Part shown: in pieces, positions 4,796 to 52,284 of the stretch | Layout: each line of letters begins with the position of its first letter | How positions within the stretch are numbered: position 1 is the first letter of the stretch | NCBI GenBank assembly: GCA_036376135.1 | Contig: DASVAW010000119.1 | Coordinates: 1,767 to 65,766 of the forward strand | DNA from: Candidatus Polarisedimenticolaceae bacterium | GTDB taxonomy: Bacteria > Acidobacteriota > Polarisedimenticolia > Polarisedimenticolales > DASRJG01 | Length of the DNA: 64,000 bases | Direction of reading: 5' to 3' | The notes under the pieces: generated by a model | What the model was told of the DNA's origin: nothing | The model's database searches: none | Seen by the model: only the letters and a program-made list of their open reading frames with translations | Program-made: the position numbers and the translations under genes

Positions 4796-5172
4796 GCGAC
4801 TACGTCAGCTCGCGCGCCCCCGAGCCGGTCGGCGCCTTCCCCCACGCCAAGCGGGTCGGCGACTTCCTGTTCCTCTCCGGAATCGGCCCGCGGACCCCGG
4901 GGACGAACGCGATCCCGACCACGTTCGAGGAGCAGGCGCTCGCCGTGTTCCGCAACGTGCGCACCGTCCTCGAGGACGCGGGGGCGTCGTGGGAGGACAT
5001 CGTGGACGTGACGGTGTTTCTCACGAACATGAAGCGCGACTTCCCGTCGTTCAATCGCCTGTACGCGGAACATTTCGCGACGAACCGCCCGACGCGCACG
5101 ACGGTGGAAGTCGGGGCGTTGCCGACGCCGATCGACGTCGAGCTGAAGGTCGTCGCGTACCTGAAGAAATAG
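4792..5172 (+). CDS. RidA/YjgF-family protein, probably 2-aminomuconate deaminase
   Basis: 126 aa, RidA-like ('FLFLSGIGP', 'TRTTVEV'). ATGA overlap with the ALDH. TAG stop lies inside the foldback repeat. Confidence 0.75.
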   Translation: MSDYVSSRAPEPVGAFPHAKRVGDFLFLSGIGPRTPGTNAIPTTFEEQALAVFRNVRTVLEDAGASWEDIVDVTVFLTNMKRDFPSFNRLYAEHFATNRPTRTTVEVGALPTPIDVELKVVAYLKK

Positions 5173-5319
5173 GGACAGCAACCTTTAATTGGGGACAGTC
5201 ACCGTATTTCTGCAGGGAACCGACCCGCGCTCTGTCGGTATCGGTCGCCGCACGCCCGCGGGTCGGTTCCCTGCAGAAATACGGTGACTGTCCCCAATTA
5301 AAGGTTGCTGTCCCTATTT
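5167..5319. repeat. 153-bp perfect foldback repeat (63-bp arms, 27-nt loop), TAGGGACAG family, copy A
   Basis: Arms 5167-5229 and 5257-5319 are exact reverse complements (checked base by base). AT-richer than flanks. Each arm has two GGGACAG boxes. The outer AAATAG/CTATTT carries the stops of both convergent genes. Confidence 0.9.
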
Positions 5320-5928
5320 TCTCAGGACGGCGCGCACCGGGCTCGCGTCGAACCCCTCGAGCTTGAGGGGCAGCGCGATCAGATCGTAGTCACCCTCGGG
5401 AACGTCGCGCAGCACGAGCCCCTCCAGGATCGCCATGCCGTGCGCGAGGAACCGGCCGTGCGCCGGCAGGTCCTTCGAGGAGAAGAGGTCCACGCTGGGG
5501 GTGTCGATCCCGACGAGGATGACTCCCCTCGCGTGCAGGACGTCGACGAGCGCCGGGTCGAGGGCCGCGAAGTCCTCGTCGAAACGCTCCGGGTCCGGAT
5601 AGGTGTCGGTGCGCAGCAGGAGGCGCGGCGGAAGCGGCCCTTGGGGGACCGCCGACGCCGGAATCCGAGCCCCTCTCGCGACCGCGACGCGGATCACCCG
5701 GCACGGCCCGACGTAGGCGTCGAGCGAAACCGCGTCGATCGACGCGGCGTCGCGGCCGTAGTGGCTCGGCGCGTCGGCGTGTGCGCCGAGGTGGACGGTG
5801 GCACGCAGCGTCGACAACGTGAGGTTCGCCCCGGCCTTCATGTCGCACAACACCTCGCGGGAGGGCGGCGTGTCGCCGGGCCAGACCGCCAGACGCGGCG
5901 ACACGAGGGGAGAGATGTCGAGGATCAC
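5314..5928 (-). CDS. kynB: kynurenine formamidase (arylformamidase)
   Basis: 204 aa from GTG at 5928 (GTGA overlap with the upstream kinase stop). Metal motif 'HLGAHADAPSH'. 'ILDISPL' N-terminus typical of KynB. Confidence 0.85.
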   Translation of the reverse strand: MILDISPLVSPRLAVWPGDTPPSREVLCDMKAGANLTLSTLRATVHLGAHADAPSHYGRDAASIDAVSLDAYVGPCRVIRVAVARGARIPASAVPQGPLPPRLLLRTDTYPDPERFDEDFAALDPALVDVLHARGVILVGIDTPSVDLFSSKDLPAHGRFLAHGMAILEGLVLRDVPEGDYDLIALPLKLEGFDASPVRAVLRK

Positions 5929-16120: not shown

Positions 16121-16121
16121 T

Positions 16122-16137
16122 TAGGGACAGGCACCAA
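16122..16137. repeat. TAGGGACAG-family half-site C (TAGGGACAGGCACCAA)
   Basis: Starts 2 nt after the TAA of the Tim44-like gene. Its exact 16-nt reverse complement lies at 52264-52279. Confidence 0.6.
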
Positions 16138-16150
16138 CTCCTTCGCCGGC

Positions 16151-21045: not shown

Positions 21046-22122
21046 ATGTGGACGCCACGCGCCATAATCGCCAGCGTGGAAACACGGGTTCTGCCGCCGA
21101 CGCCCGAGACGATCGCGCAAGCCGCAGCCGCACTGCGGCATGGGGATCTCGTCGGGATCCCGACCGAGACCGTCTACGGCCTCGCGGGGAACGCCCTCGA
21201 CGCGCACGCCCTCGCGTCGATCTTCGCCGCGAAGGAGCGCCCTTCGTTCGACCCGCTCATCGTCCACATCGGCGGCGCGATCGACGCGACGGGGCTCGTG
21301 GACCTCTCGGCGTTCGGCGCGTGCGCCCGCGACCGCCTTCGCGCGCTCGTCGACGCGTTCTGGCCGGGGCCGCTGACCCTGGTCCTGCCGAAGACCCCGA
21401 TGGTCCCCGACCTCGCCACGAGCGGCCTGGCGACGATCGCCCTTCGGGCGCCTTCGCATCCGGTGGCGCGCGCCCTGATCGCCGCGGCCGGCGTTCCGCT
21501 CGCCGCGCCGAGCGCGAACCGATTCGGCCGGATCAGCCCGACGACCGCCTCCGACGTCGTCCAGGAGTTGTGGGGACGGGTCTCGATGGTGATCGACGGG
21601 GGGCCCTGCGCCGTCGGCGTCGAGTCCACCGTCGTCGCGATCGATCCGGAGGGAGGGCTTCGGCTGCTGCGGCCGGGCGGGATCTCTCGGGAGTCGCTCA
21701 TCGCGGTCACCGGCGCACCCGTCGCCGTCGTGCCGCGCGTGGTGGGCCCGGGCGCCCCCGCGCGCTCCCCGGGGATGCTCGAAAGCCACTATGCGCCCGT
21801 GAAACCCCTGCACCTGCTCCCGCGCGCGATCCTCGCGTTGAACGACGTGGAACGTCGCGAGCTGCTCCCCGCCGGCGCCGGAATCCTCGCCGCGTCGGGG
21901 GATGCCGAGGCGATCGCCGCCGCCTGCGCCGGGCCGCCCACGATTCTCCGCGTGCTCAGTCCCTCCGGCGACGCGGAGGAGGCGGCACGGAACCTCTTTG
22001 CGGCGTTGCGCGCCCTCGACGCTTCCGAGGCGACGACCCTCGTCACCGAGCCGTGGCCCGGCGAGGAGGGGCTCGGCTACGCGATCGCCGACCGCCTGCG
22101 CCGCGCCACCGCCGTCAAATAG
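21046..22122 (+). CDS. tsaC: L-threonylcarbamoyladenylate synthase (Sua5/YrdC long form)
   Basis: 'GDLVGIPTETVYGLAGNA' and 'PSANRFG' YrdC motifs, plus a Sua5-type C-terminal domain. Start may be GTG at 21076. 'AAATAG' stop lies in foldback B. Confidence 0.85.
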   Translation: MWTPRAIIASVETRVLPPTPETIAQAAAALRHGDLVGIPTETVYGLAGNALDAHALASIFAAKERPSFDPLIVHIGGAIDATGLVDLSAFGACARDRLRALVDAFWPGPLTLVLPKTPMVPDLATSGLATIALRAPSHPVARALIAAAGVPLAAPSANRFGRISPTTASDVVQELWGRVSMVIDGGPCAVGVESTVVAIDPEGGLRLLRPGGISRESLIAVTGAPVAVVPRVVGPGAPARSPGMLESHYAPVKPLHLLPRAILALNDVERRELLPAGAGILAASGDAEAIAAACAGPPTILRVLSPSGDAEEAARNLFAALRALDASEATTLVTEPWPGEEGLGYAIADRLRRATAVK

Positions 22123-22242
22123 GGACAGCAACCTATTCGCTAAATAGGGACAGTCCCTCTTTTCCAGCTCCGCGACGTGTGTCTTCGGAGCTGGAAAAGA
22201 GGGACTGTCCCTATTTAGCGAATAGGTTGCTGTCCCTATTTG
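22116..22242. repeat. 127-bp perfect foldback repeat (57-bp arms, 13-nt loop), TAGGGACAG family, copy B
   Basis: 22117-22172 and 22186-22241 are exact reverse complements, plus one more flanking pair. Shares AAATAGGGACAGCAACCT with copy A. Contains a second box, TAGGGACAGTCCCT. Carries the stops of both convergent genes. Confidence 0.9.
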
Positions 22243-49472: not shown

Positions 49473-50773
49473 CCCCGTCGCGCCGCCTCGCGTGGGTCCT
49501 CGCGGCGTGGGCCGCGGCCGGGTTCCTCCTTCCGGTCGGTCCCTTCGTGCTCCCGGTGTGGGCGTACGCGGGCCTCGCGATCTTCGGCCTTCTGGGGATC
49601 GATGCGATCCTCGGCTCCCGACGGCGGACGCCGACGCTCACGCGGAAGGTGCAGGACGCGTTGCCGCTCGGCGATCCGTCGGAGGTCGTGCTCCACCTCG
49701 CGCACGAGGGGAGTCGCCCGCTCGCCGTCGAGGTGTTCGATCACCCGCCCGAAGCGTTGAGCACGGACGGGCTTCCCCTGCACGTGACGGTCCGTCCCGA
49801 AACGCCGGCCGAAGTCCGCTACCGCGTCACCCCGACCGCGCGCGGCTCGATGCGCTTCGACCGGGCATGGGTTCGATTCCCGTCGCCTCTGGGGCTGTGG
49901 GAGTGCCGCCGTCGCGCGGGCGCGGAGCACACGATCCGGGTCTTCCCGAACTTCCGGAAGGCGGCGCGCTGGTCGCTCTACGCGGTCGACAACCACGCGA
50001 GCCGGCTGGGAGTGCGCCTGCGCCCGCGTCGCGGCGAGGGAACCGAGCTGCGTGAGCTCCGGGAATACCGCGAAGGCGACGCGATCCGGCAGATCGACTG
50101 GAAGGCGACCTCACGGCTGCGCCGGCCCATCTCGCGGGAGTACCAGGCGGAGCGCGACCAGCAGGTGGTGTTCCTCCTCGACTGCGGCCGGACGATGCGT
50201 GCCGTCGACGACGGCGCGGCGCACTTCGATCATGCGCTCAACGCGGTCCTCCTGCTCGGTTACGTCGCCCTGAGGCAGGGGGACGCCGTGGGCCTTCTCG
50301 CGTTCGGCTCGACCCCGCGCTGGCTCGAGCCGGTGCGCGGCCCCGGCGGGATGAAGACGCTCCTGGAGGCGGTCTACGACCTCGAGACGGCGCCGCAGGC
50401 GTCGGACTACGCCGTGGCGGTCGCCGACCTGCTCGCACGGCAGCGCCGGCGCGCGCTCGTCGTCGTGATCTCCAACCTCGGCGACGGGGAGGGGTTCGAG
50501 GTCGCGGCGCCCCTGCAGACCCTGCGACGCAAGCACCTCGTCGTGCTGGGCTCGCTGCGCGAGGCGGCGCTCGATCGCGCGCTCGCGGCGCCGGTGGCGG
50601 GGTTCGACGCGGCGCTGCGGATCGCCTCGACCCACCGTTTCCTCGAGGCCCGCGAGCGCGCGCACCGCGGCTTCCAGTCGCGCGGCATCCACGTGCTCGA
50701 TTGCCCGCCGTCGGAGCTGCCGCCGGCGCTGGTCAATCGCTACCTCGACATCAAGCGGGCTGGGACGCTGTAA
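49469..50773 (+). CDS. DUF58 (vWA-like) protein
   Basis: Two N-terminal TM helices. 'LREYREGDAIRQIDWKATSR' DUF58 signature. 'VVFLLDCGRTM' vWA-like start. Confidence 0.85.
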   Translation: MTPSRRLAWVLAAWAAAGFLLPVGPFVLPVWAYAGLAIFGLLGIDAILGSRRRTPTLTRKVQDALPLGDPSEVVLHLAHEGSRPLAVEVFDHPPEALSTDGLPLHVTVRPETPAEVRYRVTPTARGSMRFDRAWVRFPSPLGLWECRRRAGAEHTIRVFPNFRKAARWSLYAVDNHASRLGVRLRPRRGEGTELRELREYREGDAIRQIDWKATSRLRRPISREYQAERDQQVVFLLDCGRTMRAVDDGAAHFDHALNAVLLLGYVALRQGDAVGLLAFGSTPRWLEPVRGPGGMKTLLEAVYDLETAPQASDYAVAVADLLARQRRRALVVVISNLGDGEGFEVAAPLQTLRRKHLVVLGSLREAALDRALAAPVAGFDAALRIASTHRFLEARERAHRGFQSRGIHVLDCPPSELPPALVNRYLDIKRAGTL

Positions 50774-50793
50774 ATAGGGACAGGAACCTATTT
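50772..50793. repeat. TAGGGACAG-family half-site D (AAATAGGGACAGGAACCTATTT, itself a 7-bp-stem mini-palindrome)
   Basis: Contains the TAA of the DUF58 gene (+) and the TAG of the orphan ORF (-). 20/21 identity with 22117-22137. Confidence 0.7.
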
Positions 50794-52218
50794 CCGACCT
50801 CCGGTCGGCCATCGGCAGACCTCGCGGTCATAGGAGACGACGTCCGAAGCCAAGTCTCCTTCGCCGAGACAGATCTCCTTCGTGGCGGAACCCCAACGCT
50901 CGCGGCTGGTCGGGAGCAGCGGGGTGTAGTCCCGTTCCAGCTCGCCATCGCATCCCGGGCTCACCAGAACGACGCCGAGACCATCTGAGAAATAGAGAAC
51001 GGAGCGCCCCCACCCATCGAGGATGGGACCGACAGCGTCCTTCGATGCAGGATCGACGGCCGTGGCGATCCGCTCGAACGGAACCAATCGTCCCCCGCTG
51101 TCGGGATAACGATCGCCTCGGCGCAGTTTCTCGGAGGCCGTGACAACCGCCCGGCGGATCGCCGCGTACGTTCGTTCGACATCCGCATCATCGAACGAGG
51201 CGCAGCCGTCCACCGCTGCGCCGGCGCAGAGCGCAGGGTTCGTTTCGACCTCCGCGAGGCGACGGTCAACGCATTCCGAAGGACTGCCACTCTGCGCGAA
51301 GCCGTACACGTCGATGTCGACGTCGCAACCGAGGGTGGAGCAGATCCGATCGCAGTAGTCGCGCGGAAGCTCGACCGACCGCTCTTCGCCCGCGACCCAC
51401 TCGTCGGCTCCAGGCCACGGAAGCGACAGGAACACCTCCCCGGAGCGGTCGCCGGCGCGACGAAGGTCGATCGCCTCGGTTTCATCGGAACGTCGCAGAC
51501 TCGTTCCCGACCCGTTGACCAGGACCAGCCGTCTCGTCGCGTCGATTCGCGCGCGAATGCCCTCCTCGGTATTGCACGATTCCACGACGACGGGTTCGCG
51601 ACCGGGATCGGCCACTAGGAAGCGACGGAGCGACTCCGACTCGCCGACGGTGATGCGGAAGGCTGCGCCGTTGCGCTCGTTGCCTTGCTTGTCGACCAGA
51701 GTGGGGCGCACGGAATAGGTGCCGGGCGCTACCTTCGAGGCGTCCCACGCCCCTTCTTTCCCTGAGTCGAAGACGACCGCGATCCCCTCGGTGCCCTCGG
51801 AGCCGGTCAGCGCCAGCGATCGGATGCGCAGCGGGCAGGGAACTTGCGGACAACCGTCCGACGCCGTCCACGTGCGACCTGGCGACGCGTGGACGACCGT
51901 GGCGAAGCATCCGATCAGCAGGCCTGTGAGAGCAGCCCCCAACGTGTTCTGAACGTTCCCGTTGCGGGCAGCGCGCCGACCGAGACGATGCAGCACCGCC
52001 GCCACGACCATCGCCACGCCGGTCGCGAGCAGAACCCAGCCGGTGAAGCGCGGCCCCCGGATCGCCAGCGTGAGCGCGGCGGCAACGATCATCGTGACGC
52101 CCAACGCATCGGCGAGCCGCTTTCCCCGATCTCCCCGGCGTCGAATCCAGATGAGGACGTACCCGACACCGATACCGACCGCCGCGGGGTAGAGGGTCTC
52201 TACGAGATCCATGGGCAC
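50788..52218 (-). CDS. orphan membrane protein with Cys-rich extracytoplasmic region (lower GC)
   Basis: N-terminal 3-4 TM helices, then a balanced Cys-containing sequence. No family recognised. ATG at 52212 is an alternative start. Bracketed by inverted half-sites D and E. Confidence 0.55.
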   Translation of the reverse strand: MPMDLVETLYPAAVGIGVGYVLIWIRRRGDRGKRLADALGVTMIVAAALTLAIRGPRFTGWVLLATGVAMVVAAVLHRLGRRAARNGNVQNTLGAALTGLLIGCFATVVHASPGRTWTASDGCPQVPCPLRIRSLALTGSEGTEGIAVVFDSGKEGAWDASKVAPGTYSVRPTLVDKQGNERNGAAFRITVGESESLRRFLVADPGREPVVVESCNTEEGIRARIDATRRLVLVNGSGTSLRRSDETEAIDLRRAGDRSGEVFLSLPWPGADEWVAGEERSVELPRDYCDRICSTLGCDVDIDVYGFAQSGSPSECVDRRLAEVETNPALCAGAAVDGCASFDDADVERTYAAIRRAVVTASEKLRRGDRYPDSGGRLVPFERIATAVDPASKDAVGPILDGWGRSVLYFSDGLGVVLVSPGCDGELERDYTPLLPTSRERWGSATKEICLGEGDLASDVVSYDREVCRWPTGGRK

Positions 52219-52263
52219 CGCCCTCCCGTCCGATTGCCCGGGAGTGTAGCGCCGAGTCGTTAA

Positions 52264-52284
52264 TTGGTGCCTGTCCCTATTTTT
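52264..52284. repeat. TAGGGACAG-family half-site E (reverse complement AAAAATAGGGACAGGCACCAA)
   Basis: Carries the Lys + TAG end of the 52277..52702 gene. Inverted relative to D (16/17 over AAATAGGGACAGGnACC) and a 16-nt exact inverted match to half-site C. Confidence 0.7.

Follow-up and report, generated by a model that had tools for sequence, protein, structure and literature searches.

The 64-kb window analysed here (the whole stretch of 64,000 nucleotides taken from contig DASVAW010000119.1) belongs to a metagenome-assembled genome (MAG) of Candidatus Polarisedimenticolaceae. Between its convergent genes for Sua5/TsaC and an M49-like lipoprotein lies a perfect palindrome of 127 bp, termed copy B. 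Most probably this foldback is a REPIN-like, non-autonomous inverted doublet of boxes of the TIRYT or 'TIRtron' class (Group 1 of the REP-associated tyrosine transposases, RAYTs; REP, repetitive extragenic palindrome), which arose by a mechanism of the kind proposed below. It is thus a known kind of element, and not a TA-duplicating transposon nested in another. The assignment follows from two observations: the (A/G)GGGACAG of the boxes fits the published motif GGGGWSAS, and the signatures of the protein encoded between such boxes in other genomes fit best with subclass 2.1 of the TnpA-Y1 transposases.

The arms of copy B (22116-22172 and 22186-22242) are exact reverse complements of 57 nt each, separated by a loop of 13 nt (22173-22185). 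The palindrome script confirmed the perfect foldback reported in a preliminary description of the sequence, which had counted 56 nt per arm. RNA folding gave -121.3 kcal/mol for copy B, compared with -41.6 ± 3.7 kcal/mol for 200 shuffled sequences (z = -21.7). A box (AAATAGGGACAG...) is present twice, in direct orientation, in each arm, with the motif TAGGGACAG beginning at 22120 and again at 22145, in agreement with the claim that two units of the same family are present per arm. Since the inner tier opens with the same box as the outer tier, the arm can be described as two tandem boxes. The AGGGACAGTCCCT dyad claimed for the inner unit was also found. The Sua5/TsaC gene ends with ...TAVK-TAG and the M49-like lipoprotein gene, on the minus strand, with ...VLNK-TAG. 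Both TAG codons are located inside the element (Table 1), which therefore supplies the Lys-TAG ends of the two convergent genes, as had been stated. The centre of copy B has no second copy elsewhere in the window or among the loci retrieved, and the orthologous element L123 (loci are denoted by L and a number) differs from it in the stem tip and the loop.

Copy B is not the only element of its family in the window. The terminus TAGGGACAGCAACCTATT occurs six times with at most three mismatches (0.00 expected), and there are nine exact GGGACAGnnACC boxes in addition to the degenerate inner pair of copy B. The box loci of the window, counted as four, comprise three single boxes and two doublets with two boxes per arm. 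The second doublet, copy A, provides Lys-TAG ends to the RidA-like and KynB-like genes. Its outer 18 nt (AAATAGGGACAGCAACCT) are identical to those of copy B, as the preliminary description had it. The parts common to the two copies are this terminus and the box cores, and the centres are unique. All window boxes adjoin the 3' ends of genes and most provide the TAG stop: of the seven genes running into the 5' end of a box, five terminate with AAA and the box TAG and two with a TAA situated one base earlier, and overall six of the eight box-adjacent gene ends use a box TAG. An Rfam gathering scan of the whole window matched no family.

To describe the distribution of the box, one genome per bacterial species was scanned with the pattern AATAGGGACAGNNACC, which returned at least 120 loci. 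The pattern has 14 specified bases, so many of the single matches must be chance. This does not apply, among the matches listed, to the approximately 40 close inverted doublets, to the tandem boxes, and to the extension of the similarity to a consensus of about 24 nt (AAAATA-GGGACAG-nn-ACC-W-TTTT). Among the same matches the box was found in MAGs of more than ten phyla (Planctomycetota, Omnitrophota, Nitrospirota, Desulfobacterota, Elusimicrobiota, Hydrogenedentota, Verrucomicrobiota, Gemmatimonadota, Actinomycetota and others), and the GC content of the host genomes ranged from 27 to 74%. The 5' tag of the box is ATAG (A 86% at -1, T 89% at -2, A 84% at -3), with a single occurrence of GTAG (L058). 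A stem within the single box, AAATAGG/CCTATTT, is limited to ACCTATTT variants. Tandem direct boxes were present in L154, L143, L109 and L083; together with the singles and doublets of the window and the inverted arrangements in other genomes, the repeats thus occur as singles, dimers and clusters. Counted from the core inward, the arms measure 12-24 nt in other phyla, as opposed to 35-58 nt in this lineage. Across phyla the box TAG was the stop codon of a long open reading frame (ORF) in 24 of 193 boxes, compared with 9 and 18 in control frames. A family-wide preference for this use of the box was rejected as weak, and the tight fusion to gene ends is, on these counts, a feature of this lineage.

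A metagenome scan with the lineage-specific terminus, the outer 18 nt named above, yielded 36 loci, none of them from the 70% GC lineage. One organism of 64% GC (PVBE) has four single-tier doublets, each exactly 70 nt from core to core (Table 1). They have conserved arms, diverged loops of about 28 nt and the same CAACC box as the window, and are a REPIN-like population of the classical type. Several side observations were made in other genomes. In metagenome contigs of about 40-45% GC (L128, L132, L133, L137, L144, L151, L152, L154 and L159, at the box position plus about 70 nt) the box is followed by a conserved segment of about 50 nt (AGAAGCGATCTTGAGATGCAGATCCGGGAATCATGCAGCGTCCCCC), which recurs at several loci; the combination resembles a further composite repeat with the box as its base. 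In Planctomycetota, Omnitrophota and other MAGs, for example in L002, L019, L067 and L074, many boxes have runs of degenerate mini-repeats (AATAGGGAAT, AATAGAAAA, AATAGGAAA) upstream. A viral vector was dropped from consideration, since the viral scan gave 91 single matches and no pairs, as chance predicts. Integron attC sites, Xer/dif modules, DNA uptake sequences and CRISPR repeats were rejected as well: their defining cores are absent, and the link to a transposase explains the data.

This link consists in a gene for a protein of 221-231 amino acids, which adjoins a box in at least 12 loci among the matches listed. The geometry is fixed in L034, L076, L071, L013, L083, L021, L047 and L017, where boxes flank the gene as inward-facing inverted repeats, about 55 nt before the start codon and 11-35 nt after the stop codon, the full element of boxes and gene measuring about 750 bp. 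The protein matches Pfam Y1_Tnp above threshold (E 1e-12 to 1e-18). Its best NCBIfam model is REP_Tyr_transpos, the REP-associated tyrosine transposase, with 66-74 bits, compared with 20-28 bits for IS200. It contains the motifs NHVH, HLWQ, Y-x-E-x-NP and WSSA and a conserved C-terminal tail. A single-sequence search against the PDB gave no match; a profile search alone reached E. coli TnpA-REP (4ER8, E 1.5e-5) as the closest solved structure, besides 2XM3 and 2A6M, which represent the Y1 HUH catalytic core. Residues 152-221 gave only weak PDB profile matches to the helix-turn-helix (HTH) protein EDF1 (E 0.2-0.4). The protein family comprises at least 7,757 clusters at E <= 1e-10. All transposase genes found between box termini were of the Y1/HUH type and none was of the DDE type. 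In L017 (369-993) the gene is frame-broken between intact boxes and gave only partial tblastn matches, and this locus is a decaying full element. A sigma-70-like promoter (TTGACA-17-TAnnnT) was noticed just inside the upstream box, before the transposase ATG, in L094, L017 and L076.

Repeats and transposases of this type have been described. Di Nocera et al. (2013, PMC3733652) defined TIRtrons or TIRYTs as RAYT-like tyrosine transposases whose terminal inverted repeats share the motif GGGGWSAS; the hosts include Acidobacteria and Planctomycetes (Rhodopirellula), and the repeats are dispersed as singles, dimers and clusters. According to the same paper GTAG-REP ends frequently give flanking ORFs their TAG stop, and REPs are reported there to influence termination and mRNA stability. 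Quentin et al. (2018, PMC6006769) placed most TIRYTs in TnpA-Y1 subclass 2.1, whose signature is NHVH, W[EQ], a Tyr motif of the YIELNP type, a length of about 238 amino acids, an SS motif and a C-terminal HTH; they also proposed that 'double-foot' REPs form by central deletion of an inverted dimer. Group 1 is the most widespread group of RAYTs and, along with Group 6, the most similar to insertion sequences (ISs), and the 16-mers flanking its genes are moderately repeated (Bertels et al. 2017, PMC5581495). In our material GGGGWSAS is fitted exactly (GGGGACAG) by the inner boxes of copy A and L123, and also in L083 and L021, and in seven of eight positions by most other boxes (AGGGACAG). Judged from its motifs, the transposase would fit subclass 2.1 best.

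At orthologous sites in relatives the number of boxes per arm was zero (the 21-nt 'double-foot'), one or two, and every element was perfectly palindromic. The comparison of the Sua5/M49 junction, suggested in the preliminary description, revealed a 21-nt and a two-tier form. In the independent assemblies L121 and L122 (Sua5 90% identical) only AAATAGGGAC-A-GTCCCTATTT is present, 21 nt in length, with both Lys-TAG ends kept. L123 (Sua5 84% identical) has a perfect palindrome in two tiers, whose boxes are those of copy B. At least five places differ between the two (a linker indel, two linker substitutions, TAGGG>TGGGG and the stem tip), and all the differences are mirrored in both arms, none being one-sided.

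At the site of copy A the relatives L164, L161 and L162 (KynB 90, 87 and 85% identical) have one box per arm, of the inner type of copy A (GGGACAG[T/C]CACCGTA), directly at the gene end, and centres that are unrelated to that of copy A and to one another. In L164, the complete case, the symmetry is perfect for 47 nt and takes in 7 nt of both coding regions, so that both genes end with L-R-K-stop. Symmetry beyond the box and into the coding regions was noted in two elements, L164 (573-695, CCTGAGA+AAATAG on both sides) and L123 (1524-1648, TCGGA+AAATAG), with the result that the converging genes have the same last codons. KynB orthologs of 80% identity or less are two to three residues longer (..RSLP) and have a TGA stop and a different downstream gene, which indicates that the Lys-TAG ending of KynB is derived. 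The convergent KynB-RidA arrangement was seen only in the box-bearing clade, KynB being followed by a co-directional gene in the relatives at 80% or less; the copy A palindrome (compared over window positions 5100-5400) thus lies at a synteny breakpoint. L165, L166, L258 and L259 were considered as empty sites and rejected, their gene order being different. Site A is most simply read as an older inner box to which, on the gene side of both arms, the outer CAACC box was subsequently added. For the Sua5 site it is simpler to assume loss of the outer tier and of the centre. Gain and loss of outer boxes probably both occur.

The preliminary description put forward, as a hypothesis, that copy B arose when one foldback element inserted, with TA duplication, into the centre of another of the same family. 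This implies a foldback miniature inverted-repeat transposable element (MITE) of the Tc1/IS630 or Correia type. The picture of a dispersed, transposase-linked repeat copy with two units per arm stands; the nesting by TA-duplicating insertion does not, and we regard it as highly improbable. It is true that the inner unit opens with the same 9-mer as the outer unit (the TAGGGACAG motif) and has TA on both sides, and that the unit types exist separately. Outer-type boxes occur as singles in the window and as doublets in other genomes (L129, L130, L150 and L153), and inner-type units stand alone at orthologous sites of relatives (L121 and L164). However, the loop-less palindrome that would remain after excision is uninformative, since every symmetric cut of a palindrome leaves a palindrome, and so is TA on both sides, because TA is self-complementary and one boundary forces the other. 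Conservation runs about 4 nt beyond the TA (A in 84% and 63% at two positions unconstrained by the search pattern), which places the TA inside the box unit. The inner boundary is AATT/GGGG in copy A and AAAT/GGGG in L123 (the slash marks the boundary), so that boundaries at TA hold for only one of the three two-tier elements, and non-TA boundaries had themselves been named as evidence against nesting. The only gene type found between these repeats encodes an HUH Y1 and not a DDE transposase, and enzymes of this class, as in IS200/IS605, are not known to duplicate their target. Beyond the box the inner units of copies A and B are unrelated, and no other copies of them were found. Because the relatives at site A have the inner-type box alone, the outer box is most simply a later addition, the opposite of the nesting order. 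The postulated pre-insertion junction, AAATATTT, would deprive both genes of their stop codons, and no empty site with a single TA was found at the orthologous loci compared.

The series of forms at orthologous sites could also be read in the reverse direction. Arms with two boxes would then be ancestral, either as a composite end or as an old inverted duplication of tandem boxes, and the single-tier and 21-nt forms would be deletions between direct GGGACAG repeats, with no later addition of boxes. This is possible, although rather unlikely. Loss is the parsimonious reading where Sua5 is concerned, since two tiers are present in the window and in the more distant L123 and the 21-nt form in the closer L121/L122, and slippage between the TAGGGACAG repeats and then between GTCCCT repeats yields the exact sequence of L121. 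A full element with two tandem boxes at one end exists (L083), and the central deletion proposed for 'double-foot' REPs (PMC6006769) is in line with such losses. Site A, however, would require three independent symmetric losses (L164, L161 and L162) as against one gain, and the complete difference of the centres between relatives indicates that simple deletion is not the whole explanation.

It is improbable that the palindromes are two-way terminators or RNA-stability elements selected by the host, their common motif being the site of a host factor and not mobile DNA. All window copies lie between or after genes, at 3' ends, the stem of copy B is very stable, an A-run stands before and a T-run after the hairpin, and the reported effects of REPs on termination and mRNA stability cited above (PMC3733652) agree with such a role. 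A host factor site does not readily account for a 24-nt box that is conserved across phyla irrespective of their GC content and whose arrangement around a transposase gene is fixed. Single and tandem boxes incapable of forming long hairpins also exist, and the T-run is weak (tails TATTTG and TATTTG/T). A host role of the hairpins could be secondary to a mobile origin. That the perfect palindrome is a fold-back chimera produced during assembly of the MAG is hardly conceivable. One contig, L160 (KynB 98% identical; 1234-1407), does fold back onto its own KynB gene after the palindrome, and contigs L161, L162, L163 and L123 stop within or just after palindromes. But both window palindromes are flanked by different, intact genes, and the architecture of the junction, both neighbouring genes included, recurs in independent assemblies of other samples (L123, L164, L121/L122). 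L160 was dropped as evidence, being an assembly chimera whose contig folds back on itself. Perfect palindromes break short-read assemblies.

The TIRYT-type interpretation can be given the form of a working model. A transposase encoded elsewhere in the genome would nick and join single-stranded boxes and thereby seed boxes or add them beside existing ones; new box-bearing segments would land next to boxes already present, as in the tandem arrays of L154, L143, L109 and L083. The second box per arm would be added on the gene-proximal side of the existing box, and intramolecular template switching within the hairpin would then transfer it to the other arm. Such switching would erase or copy any change, keep the arms perfect and let the symmetry creep a few nucleotides into both coding ends. 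Central deletion would shrink the element to the 21-nt double-foot form. A plausible side effect is that the long hairpin, preceded by an A-run and followed by a T-run, may serve the converging genes as a two-way transcript-end or RNA-stabilising structure. A more far-reaching version, which we offer tentatively and rather doubt, is that in this lineage the boxes act as nuclei of long palindromes whose symmetry is constantly restored, either by template switching or by transposase-driven copying of the hairpin. Whole boxes would be gained or lost simultaneously in the two arms, and from one close relative to the next the centre would be replaced. If this were true, symmetry would spread into the converging genes and rewrite their last codons and stops, and a mobile-repeat system that shapes gene 3' ends might also mark rearrangement breakpoints.

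Several points weigh against the class assignment or the model attached to it. The NCBIfam scores of the transposase, 66-74 bits, are below the equivalog cut-off of 80 for REP_Tyr_transpos. Pfam, including a permissive scan, found no C-terminal HTH in the protein, a feature reported for subclass 2.1, and the Tyr motif (Y[IV]E[NRQL]NP; YIELNP in L033) is compatible also with subclasses 2.4 and 2.7. A tblastn search with the transposases gave no match in the 64-kb window or in 238 kb of loci from relatives and metagenomes. Copies A and B have unrelated centres and are therefore not copies of one master element, unlike the members of classical REPIN or MITE families. The polarity of gain and loss of the outer box was read from a ranking of the relatives by the percent identity of single proteins. 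At the Sua5 site it is simpler to take the two-tier form as ancestral and the 21-nt form as derived. Template switching and the role as terminator are parts of the model that we infer, and a scan for consensus promoters and terminators around copy B flagged nothing at the palindrome, the loop being longer than 8 nt.

Three boxes of the window, all single, were absent from the preliminary description. The box at 50772-50793, one of the two boxes of locus C, fills the whole space between two convergent genes. On its left a gene ends at a TAA (50771-50773) overlapping the A-run of the box. From the other side a minus-strand ORF of 476 amino acids (50788-52218) ends with AAATAG, read from the CCTATTT side, its stop being at 50788-50790. 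The TAG (52277-52279) of the box at 52262-52283, the other box of locus C, terminates the upstream gene, which lies on the minus strand (...IEK*). Between these two inverted boxes, at a distance of 1.5 kb from each other, lies the 476-aa ORF, whose N-terminus is membrane-like. Pfam gave no credible match for it (DUF2142 at E 0.007, below threshold). The ORF does not encode a transposase, and the boxes on either side look like ordinary intergenic copies, not like the ends of a cargo element. The third is a solo box at 16121-16138.

Table 1. Positions of the palindromes and boxes in the 64-kb window and of the PVBE doublets
Feature	Position	Strand	Remarks
Copy B, whole palindrome, two-tier inverted box doublet	22116-22242	.	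sequence read, palindrome script, RNA fold
Copy B, outer left box AAATAGGGACAGCAACCTATT	22117-22137	+	TAG 22120-22122 is the Sua5/TsaC stop
Copy B, inner left box AAATAGGGACAGTCCCTCTTTT	22142-22163	+	degenerate box variant with AGGGACAGTCCCT dyad
Copy B, locus-specific centre	22164-22194	.	9-bp G+C stem CCAGCTCCG/CGGAGCTGG around 13-nt loop
Copy B, inner right box	22195-22216	-	exact reverse complement of inner left box
Copy B, outer right box	22221-22241	-	TAG 22236-22238 (minus) is the stop of the M49-like lipoprotein gene
Copy A, two-tier perfect palindrome	5167-5319	.	63-nt arms, 27-nt loop; palindrome script
Copy A boxes, outer GGGACAGCAACC, inner GGGACAGTCACCGTAT	within 5167-5319		
Solo box TTAGGGACAGGCACCAAC	16121-16138	+	30-nt spacer between convergent genes, right behind TAA 16118-16120
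Single box AAATAGGGACAGGAACCTATTT (locus C)	50772-50793	+	entire spacer between convergent genes
Single box AAAATAGGGACAGGCACCAATT (on minus strand; locus C)	52262-52283	-	
PVBE doublet, L129	3520-3589		
PVBE doublet, L130	463-532		
PVBE doublet, L150	10354-10423		
PVBE doublet, L153	3965-4034		

With these results an unannotated perfect palindrome of an uncultured acidobacterium is assigned to a defined class of transposase-linked repeats, and a tempting but uninformative argument for nested TA insertion is removed. TIRYT/Group 1 is the largest and least understood group of RAYTs, and its repeats have so far been described only as an 8-nt motif. The cross-phylum box of about 24 nt and the full element of about 750 bp offer concrete starting points for understanding the growth and decay of HUH-linked repeats and their interaction with gene ends. 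The same holds for the series at orthologous sites, which runs from the 21-nt form through single-box to two-box arms with the symmetry perfect throughout. What is unusual in this lineage is the very long and always perfect arms, the differences mirrored in both arms and the locus-unique centres. The advances are modest and concern a known theme, not a new kind of system.

The closest known system is that of the TIRYTs. As in TIRYTs, the boxes flank a Y1 transposase of about 225 amino acids with NHVH, WQ, Y..xNP and SS motifs and a C-terminal tail, the distribution over phyla is wide and patchy, and the repeats occur as singles, dimers and clusters. The published motif, however, has 8 nt, whereas the box described here is conserved over about 24 nt in more than ten phyla, and the transposase was not found in the DNA searched from this lineage. 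Further differences, seen in this lineage, are the perfect arms of 47-63 nt, the two boxes per arm, the locus-unique centres and the fusion of both ends to stop codons. The text of PMC3733652, PMC6006769 and PMC5581495 does not mention long perfect arms, two boxes per arm, unique centres or fusion to stops. The boxes can also be compared with the REP/REPIN-RAYT systems (Nunvar 2010; Bertels & Rainey 2011, PMC3116915; E. coli TnpA-REP 4ER8, PMC3479197). Common features are short extragenic palindromic units, inverted pairs with a spacer that form hairpins, a Y1/HUH transposase, mostly of low copy number, with the same units on either side, persistence of the elements at orthologous sites, TAG-supplying termini and 'double-foot' forms from central deletion. 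The canonical REPs of RAYT Groups 2 and 3 have GT[AG]G at the foot of an imperfect hairpin; here the 5' tag reads ATAG or ATGG, many variants form a weak single-box hairpin or none, and the transposase scores under the NCBIfam RAYT cut-off. The window copies have boxes in common and not the whole doublet, a comparison that covers 64 kb.

The Y1 HUH catalytic core is shared with the IS200/IS605 elements (IS608, ISDra2), whose single-strand mechanism serves as the working model here. Their ends are asymmetric subterminal hairpins and not terminal inverted repeats, and the transposase of the boxes has an extra tail of about 100 amino acids and RAYT-type motifs. Y1/HUH transposases of IS200/IS605 are not known to make target duplications. 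TA-duplicating foldback MITEs, such as the Correia elements of Neisseria and derivatives of IS630/Tc1-mariner, resemble copy B in their short terminal inverted repeats, foldback shape, intergenic location, terminal TA and effect on neighbouring gene ends. Copy B differs from them in having no demonstrable TA duplication, no DDE transposase and no conserved interior, and in its link to an HUH Y1 enzyme. Intramolecular template switching underlies the correction of quasi-palindromes, in the model of Ripley and in the E. coli reporters of the Lovett laboratory. The likeness lies in the fate of a change in one arm, which is erased or copied, and matches the mirrored differences between copy B and L123; quasi-palindrome correction is known as a mutational mechanism for short quasi-palindromes, whereas here a whole box of 20-25 nt would be copied.

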